Assembly (NCBI GenBank): GCA_963733095.1
Contig: CAVTBV010000012.1
Span: 384,001 to 448,000, forward strand
Reading direction: 5' to 3'
Length of the DNA stretch: 64,000 nucleotides
DNA from: Candidatus Bathyarchaeota archaeon
Lineage (GTDB): Archaea > Thermoproteota > Bathyarchaeia > Bathyarchaeales > Bathycorpusculaceae
Shown here: piece by piece, positions 53,333-63,999 of the stretch
Layout: each line of letters starts with the position of its first letter
How positions within the stretch are numbered: position 1 is the first letter of the stretch
Notes under the pieces: model-generated
What the model was told of the DNA's origin: nothing
Seen by the model: the letters and a program-made list of their open reading frames with translations, nothing else
Databases searched by the model: none
Translations under genes and position numbers: made by a program

Positions 53333-54268
53333 TTGGCACAACAACCAAGTTATAAAACAGTTTTCGTTTTCCTAGACACAGACAAATATTGCAGTCCATT
53401 CGACATGCTCGTAGCCATAGACGCATTCCCAGACTCCATGATATTCAAATACGAAAACGTCACAGGCGAAGACGCACCAAAAATCGTATTCGACCTACTG
53501 TTCCCACGAGGACCGGAAGGAGCAAAACACACCAAAGTCTTCATCAACGGCAGCAACTTTGAAATGGTAGAAAAAGTCGTCGAAGCAACACAGAAAGCCA
53601 TGAAGTCAGCTCCATGGGGAAACAGCATCATCGTTGACCCACGAGGCGGATACTCAACGGCCGCAGCCGCAGTGGCAAAAACCTTCGGAGCAGCAATGGA
53701 GAAGGGCTTTGGATCCTTAGAGGGCAAAAAAGTTGCAGTTTTAGCAGGCACAGGACCAGTCGGGCAGACCGCGGCAAGAATCTATGCTGCAGAAAAAGCC
53801 AACGTAACGATCACAAGTCGCTCACTTGCAAAAGGTCAAGTCGTCGCAGACAAGATTAACCAAGAATGCGGCGCAAAAAGAGTCACAGTTGTGGAAGTCA
53901 CAAAACCTGAACAAACAGTCAAAGCAATCGAGGGCGCAGAAATTGTTCTCTCAGCAGGCGCAGGCGGAATCCAACTGCTATCAGCAGCAGATCTAAACGC
54001 GAGCCCCACATGCAAAATCGTAGCAGACATAAATGCTATTAAACCACTGGGTGTTGAAGGTTTAGCTCCAAACGACGACGGAAAAGAACTCAAAGCGGGC
54101 GTTTACGGCATAGGTGCATTAGCCATCGGCAAACTAAAAATCAAGACCGAAACAGAAATGATTAAACGCGCAACCGCCGAGCCATCAGGACTCTTTGACT
54201 ACGCAATCGCATACACTATCGCTAAAGACCAAATTCTAAAGAAACTAGCAAAAGCAGCTGCCAAATAA
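53333..54268 (+). CDS. NAD(P)-dependent methylene-H4MPT dehydrogenase (MtdA/B-like)
   Basis: SPFD..VAID, FPRGP, DPRGGYSTAAA, GTGPVG, DINA.P.GVEG and GALAIG. Confidence 0.85.
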   Translation: MAQQPSYKTVFVFLDTDKYCSPFDMLVAIDAFPDSMIFKYENVTGEDAPKIVFDLLFPRGPEGAKHTKVFINGSNFEMVEKVVEATQKAMKSAPWGNSIIVDPRGGYSTAAAAVAKTFGAAMEKGFGSLEGKKVAVLAGTGPVGQTAARIYAAEKANVTITSRSLAKGQVVADKINQECGAKRVTVVEVTKPEQTVKAIEGAEIVLSAGAGGIQLLSAADLNASPTCKIVADINAIKPLGVEGLAPNDDGKELKAGVYGIGALAIGKLKIKTETEMIKRATAEPSGLFDYAIAYTIAKDQILKKLAKAAAK

Positions 54269-54503: not shown

Positions 54504-55451
54504 TTACTTTATGATCCTGTCAACGTCTATACTAAACCCGTTGTTGGTGAGTTCTCGGATGAGGGAAAGTTTCCAGCTGTCTCGGTCATCAAAGGGAGTA
54601 GTTTTTAGGCCTTCAAAATAGGGAACTTCAAAACCATTGCACTCCCTAAAGAAAATAAGAACCTTGTCCTTGCCAAGCTTTCCTGACAGAAAACCAAGTT
54701 GAAAAACTACTTTCTGCTTGGGGCTCAGCTTGCGTTTTGTGGGTGCCTCATCTTTACCATAAACATAATCGTCTGGCGAGAGCAAAACCAAAGCAAAGCC
54801 TACGTCCGCATAGTCTTTAAAGTGTTCAACGATTTTTCTTCCCTGACTGGGCTCTTCACACAATACGACAGGCACAAGCCCTATCCTTGTCAAAGCCCAA
54901 GTGATAGCCTTCTTCATCTCGTCGTCTTCACCTGAAACAACAAAAATTCTGCGGCTCATGCCGCTCATGTCAGATACAACGGATTGGGTGGGTTCTGTAT
55001 TTTTTTGGGATGTGTACAAAAATTTTTCTGTACAGAGGTATGTGCCTTTTATTTTAGATTTAAGAAGGTTTTCGAGGAGGTATTTTTTGTCTTTTGCCGC
55101 GACGAGTTTTTCTTGGTTTGGTAGGGTTAGTTTGTCGGCTGTTTGGTAGGACCAGAAGAGGACGGCTTGGGTGACTTTGATGGGGTTTAGAAGTCTTCCC
55201 ATGAACCAGAATGGTTGGCCTGCAGTAAAGGGTGTGGCAAAGGTGCGTACAAGTTCTTCTTGGGTCACGTTGAAACGGATACCGGATTTTTCGGATTCAG
55301 CGTATTCTATGTATATGTGGTATTTGGGCGCTTGCACATTAATCAGAGTTAAAAACTCAGAATAGCACAAAAACTTTGCCTTGCCAAACAATATTAGATT
55401 AGGATTTTCAGGTTTGCAAACAAAATCGTTATGAGACAGCAGCCTACACAT
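54504..55451 (-). CDS. TIR-like nucleotide-binding domain protein (CAP12/Pycsar-type TIR)
   Basis: RRIFVVSG.D, GL.PVVL.E, FALVLLSPDD and QKVVFQLGF..GKLG. True start is probably the GTG near 55337. Confidence 0.8.
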   Translation of the reverse strand: MCRLLSHNDFVCKPENPNLILFGKAKFLCYSEFLTLINVQAPKYHIYIEYAESEKSGIRFNVTQEELVRTFATPFTAGQPFWFMGRLLNPIKVTQAVLFWSYQTADKLTLPNQEKLVAAKDKKYLLENLLKSKIKGTYLCTEKFLYTSQKNTEPTQSVVSDMSGMSRRIFVVSGEDDEMKKAITWALTRIGLVPVVLCEEPSQGRKIVEHFKDYADVGFALVLLSPDDYVYGKDEAPTKRKLSPKQKVVFQLGFLSGKLGKDKVLIFFRECNGFEVPYFEGLKTTPFDDRDSWKLSLIRELTNNGFSIDVDRIIK

Positions 55452-55473: not shown

Positions 55474-56556
55474 ATGCTCAAAAACTACACTTATGATGAT
55501 GCAGGGGTAAACCGCAAACAACGTGTTGAATCCAAAAAGCAGCTAAAAAAACTCCAAGAAACTTACAAGCACAGCCAATTTAGCGGCGTAATGCATCTGC
55601 CTTATGGAAACATATTTCCCATATCCGAAAACACGTTTTTGGACATGGTCATCGAGGGCGTGGGCACTAAAGTCCTCGTTGCAGAATTAGCACAAAAATA
55701 TGACACTATAGGCATCGACGCTGTTGCCATGGCAGTCAACGATGTTATCCGTTCAGGCGCCAAACCCCTTGCGATAGCGGATAATATTCATGCGCAAGAA
55801 AGTAGACCTGAACTTGTGAACGCTTGGCTTAAAGGAATCATTCAAGGCGCAAACGAATCTGAGTGCCCGGTCACTGGTGGCGAAACAGGTGATGTGGCAG
55901 AAATAATAAGTGGCATAGCTGAAAACGCTGGGTTCGACATGGTTGTGTCCTCGGTGGGCATGGTTAAGAGGCAAGAAATCATAACGGGTGAGGACATCAA
56001 AGCGGACGACCCTATCATCGGTTTGGCCAGCAGTGGCGTTCACAGCAATGGCCTAACGTTGGTTAGGAAGGTTCTATTCAAGCAATGGGGGGGAAAATAC
56101 GAATCGACGGACATTCCGGAGGGTTTGGATAGGGAAGTGGCTCTTGAAGTGCTTGAGCCCACAAAAATCTATGTTAAACCGCTCTTGAAACTCGCTCGAG
56201 AAGTAGAAGTTAAGGCGGCAGTTCACGTAACAGGCGACGCTTATATGAAATTTAACAACCTAGCCAACTATTCGCCGGGCATAGGCTTTGAATTTAACAA
56301 TTTTAAGCCTAAACCAATCTTTGGCTTAATACAGAAGACTGCAGCTGAACTGGGATTTACCATAACTGATGAGGAGATGTTTAAAACCTTCAACATGGGC
56401 TGGGGCTTTGGCATCATAGTGGACAAAACAGACATCGACAAAGCTATGAAAACCCTTGATAAGGACAGCCTGAACCCAGAGATAATAGGGAAAGTTACGG
56501 GTAAAGAAAGAGTTGTGGAAATAGAACACAAGAATAAACGTATGATTTTAACGTAA
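55474..56556 (+). CDS. purM: AIR synthetase
   Basis: EGVGTK, AMAVND, GGET, SSGVHSNG, HVTG and TFNMG. Confidence 0.96.
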   Translation: MLKNYTYDDAGVNRKQRVESKKQLKKLQETYKHSQFSGVMHLPYGNIFPISENTFLDMVIEGVGTKVLVAELAQKYDTIGIDAVAMAVNDVIRSGAKPLAIADNIHAQESRPELVNAWLKGIIQGANESECPVTGGETGDVAEIISGIAENAGFDMVVSSVGMVKRQEIITGEDIKADDPIIGLASSGVHSNGLTLVRKVLFKQWGGKYESTDIPEGLDREVALEVLEPTKIYVKPLLKLAREVEVKAAVHVTGDAYMKFNNLANYSPGIGFEFNNFKPKPIFGLIQKTAAELGFTITDEEMFKTFNMGWGFGIIVDKTDIDKAMKTLDKDSLNPEIIGKVTGKERVVEIEHKNKRMILT

Positions 56557-56614: not shown

Positions 56615-56866
56615 ATGAAATACGCTGCAAAAATTGAGGTCAGCCTCAAACCCGGACACAGCAACCCGGAAGGCGAAACTACTGCACGTTTACTTATGGA
56701 ACTCGGCTATAAGGTCCAAGCGGTGGACGTCAGCAAAGTCTACACCGTACACCTCGACGCCTCAACGCTAAGTGAAGCTAAAACTAAGGCGGAAGAAATG
56801 AGCAAACGCCTATTGGCAAATCCAACCAAAGACAACTACACTATAAACGTCGTTGAAGAAAAATGA
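56615..56866 (+). CDS. purS: FGAM synthase subunit PurS
   Basis: LKPG..NPEG and LLANP. Confidence 0.95.
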   Translation: MKYAAKIEVSLKPGHSNPEGETTARLLMELGYKVQAVDVSKVYTVHLDASTLSEAKTKAEEMSKRLLANPTKDNYTINVVEEK

Positions 56867-59250
56867 ACCCAGACCTCTACACTCAACGCAAAAACAGCTT
56901 AGTTTATGAAGTCCCTACGGCAAAAGCCACAGAAAAACAACTCGCCGAAGTCAACAATGAACTAGCTTTAGGCTTTAGCAGTCAAGAACTCAAAGAAATT
57001 CAGGCTTATTTTAAAACAGAAAAGCGCAACCCAACCGACGTCGAACTCCAAACCATCGCTCAAACATGGAGTGAACACTGCTGCCACAAGACCTTCAAGG
57101 GCAAAATCCAACTCGACGACAAAGAAATCGACAGCCTCTTCAAAACCTACATCGCCAAAGCCACCAAACAAATCAAGTCGCCATGGTGTGTCAGCGTGTT
57201 TGAGGACAACGCGGGCATCATCAAGTTTGATAAGGGGTACGGCATAGCAGCAAAGGTGGAAACTCATAATCACCCCTCAGCGGTGGAGCCTTTTGGTGGA
57301 GCGGCAACGGGTGTCGGCGGTGTAATCCGCGACATTTTGGGCGTTTGGGCTGACCCAATCGCGTGCACTGACGTTTTGGGGTTTGGTCCATTAGATTATG
57401 ATTACAAGAAGCTTCCTCCAGGCGTTAAGCATCCAAAATACGTTTACATGGGTGTAACCGCGGGCATCAGCGCCTACGGCAACAACATGGGCATCCCAAC
57501 AGTAAACGGCGCCATATACTTCGATGACTCCTACACAGGCAACGTCATCGTCTACTGTGGCTGCATAGGACTCCTACCTCTAAACAGGTACGCAAAACAC
57601 GCCAAAATCGGAGACATCGTCGTTTTGGCAGGAGGCAAAACAGGACGTGATGGTATCCACGGGGTAACCTTCGCATCCGCAGAGCTCACCGAGAAATCGG
57701 AGGAAATCTCGCGACCAGCCGTCCAAATCGCCGACCCAATCGAAGAAGAAAAAGTCAAACGCGCCATAGTAGAAATTCGGGACCTTCAACTTGCCTCTGC
57801 TGTCACCGACATCGGCGGAGGAGGCTTATCATCAGCTGTCGGCGAAACAGCCGAACGGTTCAACTGTGGAGTCACCGCGGACTTGGCAAAGGTGCCCTTG
57901 AAGTATCAGGGCTTGACGCCATGGGAAATCTACCTCTCCGAATCCCAAGAACGCATGTTAATCACCGTGCCCCCAGAGAATTTGGAGCGAGTTTTGGCTG
58001 TTTTTGAAAAAGAAGACGTTATTGCAACAGCCATCGGAACCTTAACCACCGAGAGAAAGCTCAAACTTACTTACCATGAAGAGGTTGTCAGCGACATAGA
58101 CATGACTTTCCTCTTCAACCCCTGCACCAGCAGCAAAGCTGCAACCATCGAAAAACCAAACCTCACCGAACCAGAATTTCCCGAACCGACAAACCTCACC
58201 GAAAACCTGCTGCAACTTCTCGCAACCCCAAACATCGCCAGCAAAGAAGCCATCATACGCACATATGACCACGAAGTGAAAGGCAACACCACCCTCAAAC
58301 CCCTGCAGGGCGAGTATGCTGGACCAAACGACGCAGCCGTGCTAAAACCGCTGGATGACTCGCTGAAGTGCTTGACGATTTCTTGTGGCATGAACCCCAA
58401 CTATGGGAAGATTGACGCGTATTGGATGGCGGCTTCAGCAATCGATGAAGCAATCCGCAATAACATCGCTGTTGGGGGAAGGAGAATTTCACTTTTAGAT
58501 AATTTCACTTGGGGCAACCCAGAGAAGACCGAGCGGCTAGGCTTATTAGTTCGCGCCTGTCAAGCATGCTACGACTTCGCGGTGGCATTTAAGGCGCCGT
58601 TCATTTCAGGAAAGGACAGCCTCTACAACGAGTCGCCGTTGGGACCCGTAACTCCGACATTGCTGATTACCGCGGTTGGGGTAATTCCTAACATCCAATC
58701 CACCACTTCCATGGACCTCAAATCTGCAGGCAACTATCTCTACCTCATCGGAGAAACATTCAACGAACTTGGGGGCTCCGAATATTACAAACTCAAAGGC
58801 TACCTTGGTGCGAGCGTGCCCAAAGTGAGGGGTGCAAAAGCCAAACGCACCTTCAAAGTCGTAACCAAAGCCATCGACGAAGGCTTAGTCAAGTCATGTC
58901 ATGACCTCTCGGAAGGCGGCTTGGCAGTAGCTGCGGCTGAGATGGCGTTTGCAGGAGGCTACGGCTTAGAACTTGATCTTCGCAAAGTGCCAGGCAAAGA
59001 ACTAACCCGAAACGATTTTGCGTTGTTCTCCGAATCCAACAGCCGTTTCCTAATCGAAGTGTCGGAACAGGACAGGGGACTCTTTGAGGAATTGATGTGG
59101 GGGAAGAGTTGTGTCCAGATTGGCAATGTGACCAAAGAACAGAAGCTTGCTGTTAAGGGCTTAAATGGAAAAACCGTGATTGACGCATCACTTGAGACGC
59201 TTAGGCGCAGTTGGAAGAAAACTCTCAGCCCTGAGGAGGAATCACAATGA
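56863..59250 (+). CDS. purL: FGAM synthase subunit PurL
   Basis: WSEHCCHK, ETHNHPS, SESQERM, ISGKDS and HDLSEGG. Confidence 0.97.
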   Translation: MNPDLYTQRKNSLVYEVPTAKATEKQLAEVNNELALGFSSQELKEIQAYFKTEKRNPTDVELQTIAQTWSEHCCHKTFKGKIQLDDKEIDSLFKTYIAKATKQIKSPWCVSVFEDNAGIIKFDKGYGIAAKVETHNHPSAVEPFGGAATGVGGVIRDILGVWADPIACTDVLGFGPLDYDYKKLPPGVKHPKYVYMGVTAGISAYGNNMGIPTVNGAIYFDDSYTGNVIVYCGCIGLLPLNRYAKHAKIGDIVVLAGGKTGRDGIHGVTFASAELTEKSEEISRPAVQIADPIEEEKVKRAIVEIRDLQLASAVTDIGGGGLSSAVGETAERFNCGVTADLAKVPLKYQGLTPWEIYLSESQERMLITVPPENLERVLAVFEKEDVIATAIGTLTTERKLKLTYHEEVVSDIDMTFLFNPCTSSKAATIEKPNLTEPEFPEPTNLTENLLQLLATPNIASKEAIIRTYDHEVKGNTTLKPLQGEYAGPNDAAVLKPLDDSLKCLTISCGMNPNYGKIDAYWMAASAIDEAIRNNIAVGGRRISLLDNFTWGNPEKTERLGLLVRACQACYDFAVAFKAPFISGKDSLYNESPLGPVTPTLLITAVGVIPNIQSTTSMDLKSAGNYLYLIGETFNELGGSEYYKLKGYLGASVPKVRGAKAKRTFKVVTKAIDEGLVKSCHDLSEGGLAVAAAEMAFAGGYGLELDLRKVPGKELTRNDFALFSESNSRFLIEVSEQDRGLFEELMWGKSCVQIGNVTKEQKLAVKGLNGKTVIDASLETLRRSWKKTLSPEEESQ

Positions 59251-60065
59251 ACACTGAAGAAATCAAAGTTTGCGTAATGCGTGTCGGCGGAACCAACTGC
59301 GATGCTGAAACCCAACGTGCGTTCCAAGAGTTGGGCGTTCAGGCGGAAGTAGTTCATGTTAACGAGTTAATCAAACGCCGCAACCTGCTGGATTATTCGG
59401 CGCTGGTTTTTCCAGGCGGCTTCTCCTTTGGAGACTACGTGCGTTCAGGCGTTATATTTGCACGGCACCTATCCACTAACTTAGCTAAAGAAATGGAAAC
59501 CTTCATCGATGAAGGCAGACCAATTCTGGGAATTTGCAACGGCTTCCAGATCCTTGTCGAGTACGGTTTGCTTCCAGGCTTCAAAGGCATGAGCACCTAC
59601 CCCGAAGCAACATTAACCACCAATGAACCTACAGGCTTCAAATGCCAATGGACCTACCTTAAACAAGAAAACAAAGGCAAATGCCTATTCACAACCAAAA
59701 TCCCAGCTGGAAAAGTCATCAATTTACCCATCGCCCATGGCGAAGGCAGACTTCTGTTCCCCAAAGAACAAGAACAGGCGTATCTAATGAAGCTGATTGA
59801 TGAGGACATGTTGGTTTTCCGTTATTGCACAAAAGAAGGCCAAGTAGCCGACGGCAAGTACCCAACCAACCCCAATGGCTCATTTTATGATATTGCTGGC
59901 ATCTGCAACAAAGAAGGAAACATATTCGGTTTGATGCCCCACCCCGAGAGGGCAATGTTCTGGTGGCAACAACCCGACTGGACACACCAACAGCAAATGC
60001 TCCAATACGGCGATGGAAAACTAATCTTCCAAAGCATTATTGATAAACTAACCAAGAAATGCTAA
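59247..60065 (+). CDS. purQ: FGAM synthase glutaminase PurQ
   Basis: GTNCD, GGFSFGD, GICNGFQ and MPHPER. Confidence 0.97.
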   Translation: MNTEEIKVCVMRVGGTNCDAETQRAFQELGVQAEVVHVNELIKRRNLLDYSALVFPGGFSFGDYVRSGVIFARHLSTNLAKEMETFIDEGRPILGICNGFQILVEYGLLPGFKGMSTYPEATLTTNEPTGFKCQWTYLKQENKGKCLFTTKIPAGKVINLPIAHGEGRLLFPKEQEQAYLMKLIDEDMLVFRYCTKEGQVADGKYPTNPNGSFYDIAGICNKEGNIFGLMPHPERAMFWWQQPDWTHQQQMLQYGDGKLIFQSIIDKLTKKC

Positions 60066-60962
60066 GTCCTTGGCATACGGTAATCCCGCGCGGGCTCCCA
60101 TAGTTATGACGCTTCTGGAAGCTACAAAATTGCCCAACTGCCCGCACTCATATAGGCTTTTTTCGTGGATTAAACCGTAGAGGAAGCCAGCGCAGAAAGC
60201 ATCTCCCGCTCCGGTTGTATCGACTACTTTTACTTTGAAGGATTCCACAGTTAGTCTTTCTTGGCCGTCTGTAACATAGCAGCCTTTGCCGCCAAGTTTC
60301 ACCGCTACAATTTTGACCCCCATAGCAATCATATAGTCGGCACCTTTGCGGTAGTCTTCTTCGCCAGTTAATTGTTCAAGTTCGACGGCGTTTGGCATAA
60401 AAACATATGAATTTCGAATTATCGGTTCAATTATCGCAAAGCCTTTCTGTGCATACAATGAGCCTGGATCAAAACTGATTTTCACGCCGTCAGGCAAGGC
60501 GCTTAAGAGCTTTTTTTGTGCACGAAAAGATTTCTCACCCACAAAAGAAGACAGGTGCAGAAATTTAGTTTGAGAAACGTATTCCCATTTTATTTCTCTG
60601 GGCTCGACTTGGTCGTTGACGCCTGAGTTTATGTAGAGGGCTCTTGCACCTTTTCGGTCTACAAAACCCATCACCGAACCGCTCCTGCCTTTGGTTGCCT
60701 CAACTATGCCGTTGGTATCGACGCCTTCGGTTTTGAAGCAGTCGAGTTGCATTTTTCCTTCTCTGTCGTTGGCGACTTTTCCTATAAAGCCCACTTTACA
60801 GCCGAGCCTAGCCAACCCAACAATCGCGTTGGCGGCGGAGCCTCCGCAGGCTTCCTTGTAATCTTCGATGAAGCTTTCTTCTTCTGCAGTTGCAAGCTTG
60901 TCTACTTTAAAGAGCATATCAACGTTGAGTGCTCCAAACCCTATAACATCAAATTTTGTCAT
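60048..60962 (-). CDS. PfkB family carbohydrate/nucleoside kinase
   Basis: GGSAAN and DTTGAGDAF. Confidence 0.92.
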
Positions 60963-61867
60963 ACAAACAACTCTTTTAATGGGATTTTGTGTTCACCTAG
61001 TTTGCCGCCATAGTTGCCAGCAGAAACCTTCACAATGCCATCTATGTCTAAAATGGCTTTGATTCCTGTTTTGGTGGCTTCTTTAACAGCGTCTAAAGAA
61101 ATACCGTCGAAAACGATTTCGGCGATGTATCCGACGCCTTCTGGAACCTTAGATTCATTGCCTAATCGGGATTTAAGCGAGGGACAATAAAGGTAGTTTG
61201 TTGTGGGACCTATTTTAGGAAAATGTGTTTCTGGCTTGGACCCAGCTGAACAAATGTCAAAGGTTGTTACCACGCCATGCACCTTGTGAATTGCCCGTAA
61301 TGCTTTGGCGCCCGCCTCGTTAAGTGCTTGCTTTGATGTACACATTATCCAAAAGTTGCCGCCCATAACACCCTTAGCGTAACCCAGATAGCGTTCAATG
61401 ACGAAGTCTGGAACCATCAACGGCACAACAATGACGTCTCTACCAAACCTTTTTTCAACCCATTCATACCCATCGCCGCAGTGCCCCACGCTCTCCATCA
61501 TGTCTAGTTTGCCCTCAGCTCTCGGTAAAGCATCGAAAACGGCGGTGAAGGGTTTAACGAGTATGTCTTGGCGAATACGGTAAGAGAGTTCTGTTTCGAA
61601 TTTTTTTAGTGATTCGGCAAAGCTTTTTTTTGGGTTGATTTCTCCCCAGAACTGCAAGATGGCGCCCACCCGTTTGTCTGGGGTTTCGTTTGGGGTTAAG
61701 TATTTTTCAACTCCGCCCTCAGTTCTGCCAATGACAACGGATGGCGTTGCGGTGGAGTCTTCGGCTGCCTTACGGAGGGTCTGCTCATCGTCGGCAGTAA
61801 CGATTACTCGACAATAAATCCCCGTAAACGCTTCAGCGTAGGTATCTTCAATTTGTGCTTTACCCAT
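60959..61867 (-). CDS. ftr: Formylmethanofuran--H4MPT N-formyltransferase family protein
   Basis: [32 protein letters not shown] and [10 protein letters not shown]. Confidence 0.92.
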
Positions 61868-62950
61868 TTAACCAAGTCTCCCGACAGCTACTCCGCGAAC
61901 CTTCTTCCTAAACGCACTGCTCTCTTTTATGAGTAATTCCATATTTTTGGCTGTAACTATTTGAACTTTGAGCAAGGAATCAGAGTTTGTTGGAGAGAAT
62001 TGTTTTAGCAGAGTCTCGGCAACATTGTTTTTCTTGAGGGATTCATAGTTCCATGAGCCAAGGGCTTTTAGGGTTTGTTCTTTTCCTAACTTGCAGAACA
62101 AGTCAGCTATTGCGGCGGTGACAAGGTTACTTTCAGATAGAACAGCCACTTCAGCTTCCCTCACTGCATAATTGTTACCGTTAAAAGATACAGTTAAGCC
62201 TCCGTTGTCTCGAACCAGTTTGAAGGCTTCCACATCAGTTATGCTGTCGCCCATATACATCACATCACCCATTTCTAAACCTAAGCGTTCCACTACATCT
62301 TGAATGGCTTCAGCTTTCTGTTCCCCACCAACGGTTACAACATCCGTGAGGAACTTGCCCACGAACATCTTGGGAATTAAGCTCCAGAAAATCTCATCCA
62401 GTCGCTGAATTATGGCTTGGTCGCGGCTTGAAAAATCCTCAATGGTTTTTGCATTTGAGGGAATTTCTATTAAGGGCATTTGTGCGATTTCTTGCGCTAT
62501 CTCTCTCAGGTGCTCTTTCTCTTGGGGGGTTATGGGGCATTTGTCGAGTCTTACTTTGGTACAGTAGGTGTTTTTGTATGGGAAATCGACTGCTCTGCAG
62601 AAGGCTTTTATGTAGTGTTCGTAGCTGGTGCTGACGATGAAAGAGTCAGCTATGGCTTGCACATGGTGGAGTGTGGCTTGGCTGTTGGCGATTAGAACGA
62701 TGTTTTTGGCTGAGAAGTCTTCAATTTGGCTGTCAGTCATGCTATAGGCTTTGAAGAAGGGCAAAATCAACTTGAGCGTGCTGCCCGCGGAGTAACCAGG
62801 TTTCTTAAACGTATCTGCCAGTACATCATCGTAGAGGCTTATGTTTGTGAAGAATTTGTCTCCGTTTGGAATAAAGTTCTCTGCCAATTCGAAGGCGTTA
62901 TCGTTTTTGGATATGGGCCCTTCGCAGTCGGAGACGAAGACACGTTTCAA
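61868..62950 (-). CDS. COG4030/EhaR-like HAD-superfamily protein
   Basis: SDCEGPISKNDNA, STSY and GDSITD...SFNGN.YA. TTG start overlaps the purD stop. Confidence 0.8.
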   Translation of the reverse strand: MKRVFVSDCEGPISKNDNAFELAENFIPNGDKFFTNISLYDDVLADTFKKPGYSAGSTLKLILPFFKAYSMTDSQIEDFSAKNIVLIANSQATLHHVQAIADSFIVSTSYEHYIKAFCRAVDFPYKNTYCTKVRLDKCPITPQEKEHLREIAQEIAQMPLIEIPSNAKTIEDFSSRDQAIIQRLDEIFWSLIPKMFVGKFLTDVVTVGGEQKAEAIQDVVERLGLEMGDVMYMGDSITDVEAFKLVRDNGGLTVSFNGNNYAVREAEVAVLSESNLVTAAIADLFCKLGKEQTLKALGSWNYESLKKNNVAETLLKQFSPTNSDSLLKVQIVTAKNMELLIKESSAFRKKVRGVAVGRLG

Positions 62951-63999
62951 GACTTGCGCCTCAACTGATCCATATGGTTGATGCTTTTTTGGATGTGTTG
63001 TTTTGAGGCAACGTCGGTGCGGTTCCAAAGTGCACCGCCTGTTATGGCTTTGGCGGCTTCTTGGCTGATTTGGCGGGCTTCTTCGATGCTGTCGCCGATT
63101 CCGAGGATGCCGATGGCACGGGATTTGAGGGCATAGTTTTTGCCGTCGCGTAGTTCAATTGAGCCGGGGTAGAGGCGGATTTTGTCACCGTATTTTTTGG
63201 CTAACGCCTGTGCTTTTGTGAGGTCAACGGGTGTGTTGATTGTGGATTTGTCAACTTTGTTTGGGAACGTGTCGGCGTAACTGCCGTAGTCTGCGGGAAC
63301 TTTGTATGTTAAAACTGTCGCCGACTTCTCCATCATGACACCAGTTAGGTTGCCGTTCACCATGTTTAAGCAGACATCTACAAAGTCGTCTTTAACGATT
63401 GGAAGAAGGTTCATTATTTCTGGATCACCGGGGCGGCTGTTGATTTCGAGGATTTTAATGCCTTTGCCAGTATGCATAAACGCAAGGTATAATGGGACGC
63501 CTCGGAGAGCTGAGTCATCGCTGATTTTTGCTCTCCAACCCGCGAAAACCTTGTTGGCTAACGCAAGCTCCTGTTCCCGCTCTGCAGCGGTCAAAAACGG
63601 CAACCAATCAACAACATCCTTGTAAGAACCCATGCCCCCCGTGTTTGGACCATGGTCGTCGTCAAAAGCGCGTTTGTAATCGCGCGTGTCTGGAAGAGGA
63701 ATGAAATGTTTGCCGTCGCAGAAGCCCATGCAGCTGGATTCTTCACCGTCGATTTTTTCTTCTATAAGAACCGAGCCATACTTGAAGTTGGACAAGAAAT
63801 GTTCAAACAGCTGTTCACGGTTTGCAAAGTGGTCGCCCCAGACACCAACACCTTTTCCTAAGGCAGGCTTATCTGGTTTAACGACGGCTTGGTTGTTAAG
63901 TTCATCGAGCCATTGGTAAACAGCCTTCTGAACATCCTTGCCCTTGTAATCAGCGGGATGGAAAATCTTGAAGCGTGGGTTTGCTTCTGGAGCAATCTC
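62947..63999 (-). CDS. purD: Phosphoribosylamine--glycine ligase, 5' partial
   Basis: Frame is open to the window end; VVKPD..GKGV, IEEKIDGEE, DYKR, GPNTGGMG and EINSRPGDPE. Confidence 0.95.
   Translation of the reverse strand, partial: EIAPEANPRFKIFHPADYKGKDVQKAVYQWLDELNNQAVVKPDKPALGKGVGVWGDHFANREQLFEHFLSNFKYGSVLIEEKIDGEESSCMGFCDGKHFIPLPDTRDYKRAFDDDHGPNTGGMGSYKDVVDWLPFLTAAEREQELALANKVFAGWRAKISDDSALRGVPLYLAFMHTGKGIKILEINSRPGDPEIMNLLPIVKDDFVDVCLNMVNGNLTGVMMEKSATVLTYKVPADYGSYADTFPNKVDKSTINTPVDLTKAQALAKKYGDKIRLYPGSIELRDGKNYALKSRAIGILGIGDSIEEARQISQEAAKAITGGALWNRTDVASKQHIQKSINHMDQLRRKS

Follow-up and report, generated by a model that had tools for sequence, protein, structure and literature searches.

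The stretch of DNA analyzed here, called the window, comprises 64,000 nucleotides of contig CAVTBV010000012.1 (C12) of a Candidatus Bathyarchaeota archaeon (assembly GCA_963733095.1). It carries a gene for a protein of the formylmethanofuran:tetrahydromethanopterin (H4MPT) formyltransferase family (Ftr), which is embedded among genes of purine biosynthesis. This protein and its group are called Ftr2, the name following PMC9012536. On the minus strand, ftr2 is preceded by purD, which codes for glycinamide ribonucleotide (GAR) synthetase, and by a gene for an EhaR-type phosphohydrolase of the HAD superfamily (the "COG4030" protein, referred to as HAD). It is followed by pfkB, which codes for an EhaT-type kinase of the ribokinase family. 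Because purF is located directly upstream of purD, the unit is a compact minus-strand operon, purF-purD-HAD-ftr2-pfkB. The question raised by this arrangement concerns the third step of purine biosynthesis, the conversion of GAR to formylglycinamide ribonucleotide (FGAR), which brings in C8 of the purine ring.

The genes are listed in Table 1. The four genes purD, HAD, ftr2 and pfkB overlap or abut, as stated in a preliminary description of the locus, and this was confirmed from the sequence and by domain scans. The junction between purD and the HAD gene is a TTGA overlap, HAD and ftr2 are joined without a gap (TAA followed by ATG), and ftr2 and pfkB share an ATGA overlap. The start codon assigned to the HAD gene is the TTG that overlaps the TGA of purD; the longest open reading frame (ORF) would begin at 63028. 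The same description had the cluster converge on purM-purSLQ, which also holds: purM, purS, purL and purQ run toward purD-HAD-ftr2-pfkB from the plus strand, and the convergent genes pfkB and purQ overlap by 18 bases. The product of the step proposed below for Ftr2 is the substrate of PurL.

Table 1. Genes and other features referred to in the text. Coordinates are positions in the 64,000-nucleotide window; those with C12 are contig coordinates, and those with a genome (G) or locus (L) handle refer to other places. Gene calls are based on ORFs and on Pfam and NCBIfam scans.
Feature	Coordinates	Strand	Remarks
purF	C12:448409-449740		outside the window
purD (GAR synthetase)	62947 to beyond 63999	-	5' part outside the window; visible part: GARS_A 113.5 bits, TIGR00877 179.7 bits; runs to C12:448359 in the genome; full gene C12:446998-448344, 233.7 bits
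HAD (EhaR-type HAD-superfamily phosphohydrolase)	61868-62950	-	360 aa; weak HAD Pfam matches
ftr2	60959-61867	-	FTR (PF01913) 151.1 bits; FTR_C (PF02741) 178.6 bits
pfkB (EhaT-type ribokinase-family kinase)	60048-60962	-	PfkB 181.2 bits
purQ	59247-60065	+	NF002252 317.2 bits, above cut-off
purL (FGAR amidotransferase)	56863-59250	+	TIGR01736 685.1 bits
purS	56615-56866	+	TIGR00302 67.7 bits
purM	55474-56556	+	TIGR00878 269.6 bits
TIR-domain protein	54504-55451	-	315 aa; CAP12/Pycsar-effector type, 69.7 bits; between purM and the Mtd-like gene
Mtd-like ("MtdA/B-type") gene	53333-54268		Mpt_N domain 52.8 bits
Two adjacent PurP paralogues of this genome	G000:C6:33377-35016		PF06973, 227.8 and 249.8 bits
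Divergent PurN-like proteins	L090:6359-7204; L091:5341-6333; L092:15799-16635		281-330 aa, with an inserted segment
Matches with in-frame stop codons	G533:C3:196835-197704; G516:C59:9386-10759; G501:C1:705311-706321		TGA in one Ftr2 match, TAA in each of two purD matches

The preliminary description had seen neither purN nor purT in the visible cluster, and it had set down in advance a search of the genome for these genes as a possible refutation of its proposal. Neither was found. The genome (2.84 Mb in 16 contigs, 95% complete) yields no match to the PurN family (PF00551). PurT is also absent from the whole genome, the only match being a weak one to carbamoyl-phosphate synthase, and neither PurH nor formate-tetrahydrofolate ligase has a match in the genome. 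A second, canonical ftr was found on contig 9, so that the window copy is not the sole ftr. Its product (Ftr1) scores 306-312 bits against the archaeal Ftr entries of the PDB (1FTR, 1M5H and 1M5S) and passes the equivalog model TIGR03119 with a score of 379. FwdA (800.6 bits) and Mch (391 bits) are encoded as well. The formyl branch of methanofuran and H4MPT is therefore complete in this cell and includes a canonical Ftr1, and it is probably Ftr1, not the product of the window gene, that serves as the Wood-Ljungdahl formyltransferase. The genome also has two adjacent paralogues of PurP; such duplications are likewise described for other archaea in the relevant passage of PMC3261824. Thus, the second purine formylation is covered by formate-dependent PurP, and the first has no recognizable enzyme.

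Ftr2 differs from Ftr1 by several measures. The two proteins are 36% identical. Ftr2 reaches 158-182 bits against 1FTR, 1M5H and 1M5S, it fails TIGR03119 (233.5, cut-off 292.6), and it is above the cut-off of the looser subfamily model NF002554 (332.8, cut-off 297). Pfam and NCBIfam scans of Ftr2 detect neither a PF00551 domain nor the ATP-grasp domain of PurT. In two phylogenetic trees, the window protein falls outside the canonical clade, which comprises 26 rows with an SH-aLRT support of 99. In a tree of 65 rows, a branch with a support of 91 has the 34 Ftr2-type rows on the same side. This side includes proteins that their sources name Njordarchaeota, Atabeyarchaeum, Methanoliparum, Methanolliviera, Micrarchaeales and Aenigmarchaeota, together with sequences from the second phylum introduced below; Asgard archaea, Methanoliparia and organisms labelled DPANN are represented in it. 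We regard Ftr2 as an old, separate paralogue clade, probably of "EhaS" type.

The active-site glutamate, Glu-250, is conserved in all 36 Ftr2 sequences compared and aligns with the glutamate of the E-I-V motif in 1M5H and 1M5S. The corresponding role of Glu-252 in FhcD, a bacterial Ftr homologue, is described in a passage of PMC6926001. Other alignment positions are conserved within each group and differ between Ftr2 and Ftr1. Position 48 is Arg in 32 of 36 Ftr2 sequences and mostly Pro or Asp in Ftr1; position 99 is Arg in 35 of 36, as opposed to mostly Gly or Ser; position 130 is Cys in 36 of 36, as opposed to Phe in 30 of 35. Positions 220-221 are Gly-Pro in Ftr2, and in Ftr1 they are a varied residue followed by Ala (29 of 35).

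Conservation of the gene order was analyzed in two sets of loci. The species-genome set consists of the 80 loci that were returned for an alignment of five sequences, all of them Bathyarchaeia-like and 72-94% identical. The genes purD, HAD, ftr2 and pfkB follow each other in 65 of these, and 11 more are compatible with the four-gene run, being cut by contig ends or having matches below the threshold. In the remaining 4 loci, ftr2 is flanked only by stubs of two neighbor genes. Among Bathyarchaeia, the order purD-HAD-ftr2 is kept down to 49-52% identity (e.g., in G072, G031 and G013). The other set, a metagenome scan, was seeded with members from outside Bathyarchaeia and also comprises 80 loci, many of them truncated at the end of a contig. 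The full run is present in 40 of them, the HAD gene directly precedes ftr2 in 65, and at least one pur gene is found in 61. This recurrence of purD-HAD-ftr2-pfkB is more than chance.

Several of the loci that are not Bathyarchaeia-like embed ftr2 among pur genes in their own way. Locus L104, with 99.7% identity to a protein named Njordarchaeota, reads purS-purQ-purL-purF-purD-ftr2, with HAD and pfkB absent from the run. Shorter parts of this run are seen in L106 (89%; purD-ftr2) and L107 (93%; purL-purF-purD-ftr2). L105 has the complete purD-HAD-ftr2-pfkB order, and L109 has HAD-ftr2 beside purD and purF. In L136, ftr2 overlaps purL; L181 reads ftr2-moaC-purC; and in L192, one gene separates purM from ftr2. 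These are independent cases of the embedding of ftr2 in pur operons. The purD-ftr synteny that the preliminary description had pointed to is thus conserved in Bathyarchaeia down to 49% identity and recurs in other lineages.

Some loci have a different structure. In L098 (G382:C6), from another class of Thermoproteota, a gene resembling ftr2 (55% identical) has an overlap with a HAD-like gene that is very distantly related. The ftr2-like gene is tail to tail with a canonical Ftr1 gene, which is followed by cdhC and cdhD. Two further genomes of that class (G402 and G491) have ftr2 alone. In L009, purD-HAD-ftr2 is followed by an inverted pfkB-HAD-purD, an arrangement that reflects an inverted duplication or, alternatively, an error in the assembly. 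Loci L054, L063, L066 and L076 (genomes G499-G502) and six more genomes of the second phylum carry an ftr2 of Bathyarchaeia type that is 66-76% identical. In these four loci, the sole remnants beside ftr2 are a stub of the 3' end of the HAD gene and, in two of them, a stub of the 5' end of pfkB. Genomes G499-G502 have their own distant HAD gene elsewhere (29-33% identical), and neither PurN nor PurT was found in them. This looks like a horizontal replacement of ftr2 alone.

The phyletic distribution of Ftr2 was compared with those of PurN and PurT. The Bathyarchaeia sample consists of 151 genomes that are at least 80% complete, and it was searched for the window Ftr, PF00551, PurT, PurD and HAD. 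Identity to the window Ftr is bimodal: 59 genomes have a protein with at least 49% identity (Ftr2 type), and the rest are at 42% or below. PurD is encoded in 126 of the 151 genomes. Among these, Ftr2 is the only candidate in 55, PF00551 in 56 and PurT in 11, the NCBIfam check of PurT-like matches having covered G001 and G016 and the other ten being taken as matched. The PurT of G016 is genuine (NF006766, 471.9, cut-off 339); the apparent PurT of G001 was rejected, being PurK (466.5 bits). Three of the 126 genomes have none of the three, and one (G130) has Ftr2 together with a PurN-like gene. Of the genomes without purD, 20 of 25 have none of Ftr2, PF00551 and PurT. Alternatives may replace each other within a family, as in f11 (PurT in 7 genomes, Ftr2 in 2, PurN in 1, none in 1). 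Genome G014 (98% complete) belongs to a family that otherwise carries Ftr2; it has lost both purD and Ftr2 and has kept Ftr1.

The second phylum was reached via the four loci with ftr2 between stubs, which lie in its genomes. Very probably, Methanoliparia belong to this phylum, one of whose Ftr2 proteins is identical, over the alignment columns kept, to a protein named Candidatus Methanoliparum. The sample again comprises 151 genomes, which brings both samples to 302, and 150 of them have purD. Ftr2 alone is found in 60, PF00551 alone in 68, PurT alone in 12, PF00551 with PurT in 2, and none of the three in 3. Ftr2 occurs with PF00551 in 5 (G508, G530, G541, G573 and G589) and with PurT in none. 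These counts include a PurT fragment in G583; a PF00551 match below the cut-off in G621 and matches to the PurT model at 221-236 bits in G507 and G565, which are probably PurK, were left out. The five genomes with Ftr2 and PurN fit the ANME-2a/b lineage of anaerobic methanotrophic archaea (ANME), which has both according to the passages on Ftr2 and PurN in PMC9012536. In many larger genomes of this phylum, the PurN-family match lies inside an open frame of 530-660 residues. This is as expected of fusions of PurN and PurH such as those described for haloarchaea in a part of PMC3261824.

Taking both samples together, 276 genomes have purD. Ftr2 is the sole candidate in 115, the PurN family in 124 and PurT in 23; Ftr2 is accompanied by PurN in 6 and by PurT in none, and 6 have none of the three. 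Ftr2 is therefore present in 115 of the 121 purD-positive genomes that lack PurN and PurT, and in 6 of the 155 that have one of these. In the 23 genomes with PurT only, PurN is absent and the Ftr match is of canonical type (at most 42% identity) or missing. As these genomes lack PurN and are nevertheless without Ftr2, a lack of PurN alone does not account for where Ftr2 occurs. Its distribution is near-perfectly complementary to that of PurN and PurT in two phyla, the counts being raw genome counts uncorrected for phylogeny. As a side observation, two matches to purD and one to Ftr2 in these genomes contain an in-frame stop codon (Table 1).

The replacement can also be followed at the position next to purD. 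In Bathyarchaeia, the gene directly after purD is the one for PurN (e.g., in G088, G076, G037, G047 and G097), the one for PurT (G016, G068, G103 and G006), or the first of the HAD-ftr2-pfkB block. Five Bathyarchaeia genomes (G002, G010, G034, G028 and G124) have HAD without Ftr2, and each of them has a divergent PurN-like gene by purD. The PurN-like proteins from three of these five genomes were scored and reach 51-77 bits against TIGR00639 (cut-off 150). In G034 and G028, the operon reads purF-purD-[PurN-like]-HAD-pfkB-FolD. The enzyme of Ftr fold has thus been exchanged for one of PurN fold and FolD, with the remaining operon kept. FolD makes the folate-bound formyl donor for the PurN-like enzyme. 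The PurN-like substitutes are always accompanied by the EhaR-type HAD, and FolD is in the same operon in two genomes. G130, the only genome of the Bathyarchaeia sample in which Ftr2 and a PurN-family gene coexist, also holds a PurN-like/FolD pair. The substitutes keep the N-x-H and Asp motifs, and their N-terminal S-G-x-G-S-N loop has changed to S-G-R-D-x-A. In PurN from E. coli, the G-S-N loop binds the phosphate of GAR.

PurD itself occurs in two types in the class and phylum samples, a canonical one with more than 300 bits and a divergent one with 220-280 bits, which is below the TIGR00877 cut-off. The divergent type accompanies most Bathyarchaeia Ftr2 operons and the divergent PurN-like genes, though not strictly.

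HAD is an obligate companion of Ftr2. It is present in all 59 Bathyarchaeia genomes with Ftr2 and in 64 of 65 from the second phylum (123 of 124 in total), where its gene is often far from ftr2. HAD without Ftr2 was seen in 14 genomes: the 5 Bathyarchaeia genomes named above, 7 PurN-bearing genomes of the second phylum and 2 genomes of that phylum with none of the three enzymes (G588 and G644). Four motifs are conserved in 30 HAD sequences (D8-x-E10, S107-T108-S109, K212 and G-D235-S-I-T-D239), motif I being DxE, not DxD. The AlphaFold2 model of HAD has a pLDDT of 94.3. Its best match in the PDB is the uncharacterized protein AF1437 from A. fulgidus (1Y8A; TM scores 0.80/0.92, profile E 2.7e-56), which clearly belongs to the same family, and phosphoserine phosphatases are the next-best fold matches. 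Relatives of HAD carry the JGI label "energy-converting hydrogenase A subunit R", and its look-alikes in the Atlas include a cluster named EhaR. A predicted complex of Ftr2 and HAD scored 0.00 against a mark of 0.32, which is evidence neither way.

The best NCBIfam match of PfkB is ribokinase (174.6 bits, below the model cut-off), and its nearest PDB chains are a fructokinase and ribokinases. All 5 Ftr2 genomes of the second phylum that were checked have orthologues with 37-51% identity, which are encoded directly beside HAD in 3 of them. In a small sample of 5 controls of PurN or PurT type, no orthologue was present; the best match was at 30-35% in three of them, and two had no match.

Comparative genomics leads us to the view that Ftr2, together with HAD and PfkB, probably provides the conversion of GAR to FGAR in archaea without PurN and PurT, drawing on the H4MPT/methanofuran pool. 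The case for Ftr2 as a GAR formylation route dependent on this pool is strong for a purely comparative argument, because the operon context is found in several lineages, the distribution is complementary in two phyla, and Ftr2 is exchanged in place with PurN and FolD. The preliminary description had proposed that this Ftr is either a repurposed formyl-H4MPT:GAR transformylase or a feeder of formyl units to purine synthesis; this proposal is supported, and none of the three findings that the description had named as jointly refuting it was obtained. The acceptor and donor of Ftr2, the direction of the transfer and the roles of HAD and PfkB are inferred.

Ftr transfers a formyl group between the aminomethyl group of methanofuran and N5 of H4MPT via a tetrahedral intermediate that is stabilized by a conserved glutamate, as laid out in a section of PMC6926001. 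In the mechanism that we consider most likely, Ftr2 would catalyze the reverse of this reaction on another amine. N5-formyl-H4MPT (or formyl-methanofuran) would donate its formyl group to GAR, whose glycinamide moiety would offer its primary amine in place of the methanofuran aminomethyl group, and the conserved Glu-250 would take part. The equilibrium of Ftr is near balance, about -4 kJ/mol toward formyl-H4MPT. A transfer to GAR would then need a small input of energy, and the ATP-driven PurL step could draw it forward.

A detour of three enzymes via a dephosphorylated intermediate can be envisaged for GAR formylation, which we see as unlikely as a whole. First, the EhaR-type HAD would take off the 5'-phosphate of GAR. 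Ftr2 (or the PurN-like enzyme in some genomes) would then formylate the glycinamide riboside, with Ftr2 using the H4MPT pool. Finally, the EhaT-type kinase would re-phosphorylate the product to FGAR, which would cost one ATP and make the near-equilibrium transfer irreversible. The detour would explain why the gene order purD-HAD-ftr2-pfkB matches the order of reactions and why the catalytic motifs of the companions are intact. It would also account for the tight pairing of HAD with PfkB, which holds even where ftr2 is located elsewhere in the genome, and for the retention of both upon the swap to a PurN-like enzyme, and it fits the loss of the S-G-x-G-S-N loop in the PurN-like substitutes. The Njordarchaeota-like operons, with neither HAD nor pfkB beside ftr2, argue against it.

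Several points weigh against assigning GAR formylation to Ftr2. A formyl transfer by one enzyme leaves the obligate phosphatase-like and kinase-like companions unexplained. With six genomes having Ftr2 and a PurN-family gene, the exclusion is not absolute, and the six purD-positive genomes with none of the three enzymes have an unfilled gap. PF00551 also covers formyltransferases other than PurN. Related genomes are not independent, so there are far fewer independent switches than genome counts. Proximity to pur genes is not universal either: L103 (96% identical to a Methanolliviera protein) and L111 lack pur neighbors, and ftr2 was away from pur genes in 10 of 12 loci inspected in the second phylum. 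That Ftr2 equals EhaS and the Ftr2 of Archaeoglobus and M. kandleri is taken from papers, annotations and the AF1437 match, the tree being built from other organisms. Finally, formyl-H4MPT in its N10 form is held not to be a functional formyl donor, a view cited in a passage of PMC3261824.

Ftr2 might instead formylate a different amine early in the pathway, with C8 still coming from the H4MPT pool and the order of reactions being altered. The acceptor could be glycine, with the divergent PurD ligating N-formylglycine to phosphoribosylamine, or it could be a dephosphorylated intermediate. We give this little credence. It is in line with the PurD of most Bathyarchaeia Ftr2 operons, which stays below the 288-bit cut-off at 220-280 bits, with the companions HAD and PfkB, which suggest that a phosphate is removed and later put back, and with the missing N-terminal G-S-N loop of the PurN-like substitutes. 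However, PurD is canonical in some Ftr2 genomes (397 bits in G031, and more than 500 bits in many from the second phylum), and ftr2 has neither HAD nor pfkB next to it in the Njordarchaeota-like operons.

It is very unlikely that the supply is indirect, with Ftr2, HAD and PfkB releasing formate or an activated formyl group from the H4MPT pool and another enzyme formylating GAR. Formate would have a use here, as the genome employs formate-dependent PurP for the other formylation, and the companions HAD and PfkB are present. A precedent is FhcD, whose complex has formate as its end product, as described in part of PMC6926001. However, genomes with PurT need formate too, and Ftr2 is found in none of the 23 that have PurT only. 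Furthermore, what replaces Ftr2 in place is a PurN-like transferase with FolD, not a formate-producing enzyme, and the operon codes for no FhcA-like hydrolase. An ordinary isoenzyme, that is, a second formylmethanofuran:H4MPT formyltransferase that is located in a pur operon by an accident of regulation or history while an unrelated, unrecognized protein formylates GAR, is quite improbable: the protein does have both Ftr domains, the catalytic glutamate and a match above the cut-off of NF002554, and ftr2 is usually unlinked to pur genes in the second phylum, but it fails the equivalog model, is distant from Ftr1, differs from it at R48, R99, C130 and G220-P221, and is missing where Ftr1 is kept and purD is absent (e.g., in family f14 and in G014), and an isoenzyme leaves both the mutual exclusion with PurN/PurT and the in-place swap unexplained.

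The assignment of GAR formylation to Ftr2 would address a gap that is already on record. No gene for a GAR formyltransferase was recognized in seven archaea (two Archaeoglobi, four Methanobacteriales and M. kandleri) according to the passages on this step in PMC3261824 (2011), where those Methanobacteriales are printed as Methanomicrobiales. The same passages stress that M. thermautotrophicus is a purine prototroph and point to conflicting labelling data for C8 of purines. A divergent, uncharacterized Ftr2 clade is described in a section of PMC9012536 (2022) for ANME-1, ANME-2a/b, Archaeoglobales, M. kandleri and M. marburgensis. Another section notes that ANME-1 lacks PurN and PurT and invokes "an as yet unidentified enzyme"; these passages on Ftr2 and on the missing enzyme do not connect the two. 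For Methanothermobacter, the first annotations of EhaS and EhaT were formyltransferase and ribokinase; according to the pertinent passage of PMC3087415, their genes are transcribed together with ehaA-R, and no function is assigned to them. Full-text literature searches returned no published link between Ftr and GAR formylation. One paper, on pseudomurein, matched "GAR transformylase" and was set aside as irrelevant.

Ftr2 can be compared with several known systems. Canonical Ftr (1FTR, 1M5H and 1M5S) belongs to the same two-lobed fold family (FTR and FTR_C) with the conserved glutamate, and the chemistry of an H4MPT-bound formyl group is probably common to both. Ftr2 differs by its separate clade, its failure with TIGR03119, its clade-specific residues and its context, which is purine biosynthesis and not a one-carbon (C1) pathway; the acceptor is methanofuran for canonical Ftr, whereas a purine intermediate is proposed for Ftr2. 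The Ftr2 of ANME, Archaeoglobales and M. kandleri and EhaR-EhaS-EhaT from Methanothermobacter are probable counterparts, with the same three families represented (HAD, Ftr paralogue and PfkB). In Methanothermobacter, the trio is co-transcribed with eha genes, whereas here it is part of a purF-purD operon, and no hydrogenase domain is found in the cluster.

PurN shares with Ftr2 the proposed reaction, the slot after purD, and mutual replacement both in place and in the phyletic pattern. Its fold is unrelated, and it uses a folate cofactor, as opposed to H4MPT or methanofuran. PurT, which is also carried by Methanococcales, performs the same step in archaea without PurN and never occurs with Ftr2 in the 302 genomes sampled. 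It is an ATP-grasp enzyme that uses free formate, whereas Ftr2 has no ATP-binding domain. FhcD, from the bacterial formyltransferase/hydrolase complex (PDB 6S6Y), is an Ftr homologue that also works with partners. It matches the window Ftr2 with only 98.6 bits, and its partners, as far as described in PMC6926001, are FwdABC-like and not HAD and PfkB, with formate as the end product.

Two neighbors of the pur genes were also considered. The preliminary description had noted an MtdA/B-type gene just beyond purM. The gene is real (Table 1), but a gene for a TIR-domain protein lies between it and purM, and a homologue of the Mtd-like gene (E < 1e-10, coverage at least 50%) is found within 10 kb of ftr2 in none of 80 related loci. 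It was therefore rejected as a component of the system. A homologue of the TIR gene adjoins purM in 13 of 80 related loci; it may be a defense gene in a conserved spot.

In one run of a sediment metatranscriptome, parts of pfkB, ftr2, HAD and purD (window positions 59800-63999) are represented by nine short contigs (90-99% alike), one of which, 208 bases long, crosses the junction between HAD and ftr2. Two further runs of the same study contained no matching contigs. This is a hint that the ftr2 operon is transcribed in the sediment; contigs from an RNA library are by themselves not proof.

Ftr2 is one concrete candidate for the gene that is missing in Methanobacteriales, Methanopyrus, Archaeoglobus and ANME-1, a gap that has been noted since at least 2011. 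Those parts of the literature that treat Ftr2/EhaS, EhaR and EhaT list them as having no known function and do not connect them to the missing GAR formyltransferase. If the assignment is true, Ftr2 would add to PurN and PurT a third class of GAR formyltransferase that is homologous to neither and is supplied from the C1 pool of methanopterin and methanofuran. One pathway gap would disappear from the genome-scale models made for methanogens, methanotrophic archaea, Bathyarchaeia and Asgard archaea, and three widespread "Eha" accessory genes would obtain a function. Furthermore, C8 of purines would be tied directly to the methyl branch of the Wood-Ljungdahl pathway, which would fit the co-transcription with the anaplerotic Eha hydrogenase. 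The anaplerotic role of this hydrogenase was reportedly described by Lie et al. in 2012. The assignment could also reconcile the conflicting C8 labelling data that are reported in the passage of PMC3261824 on this topic.

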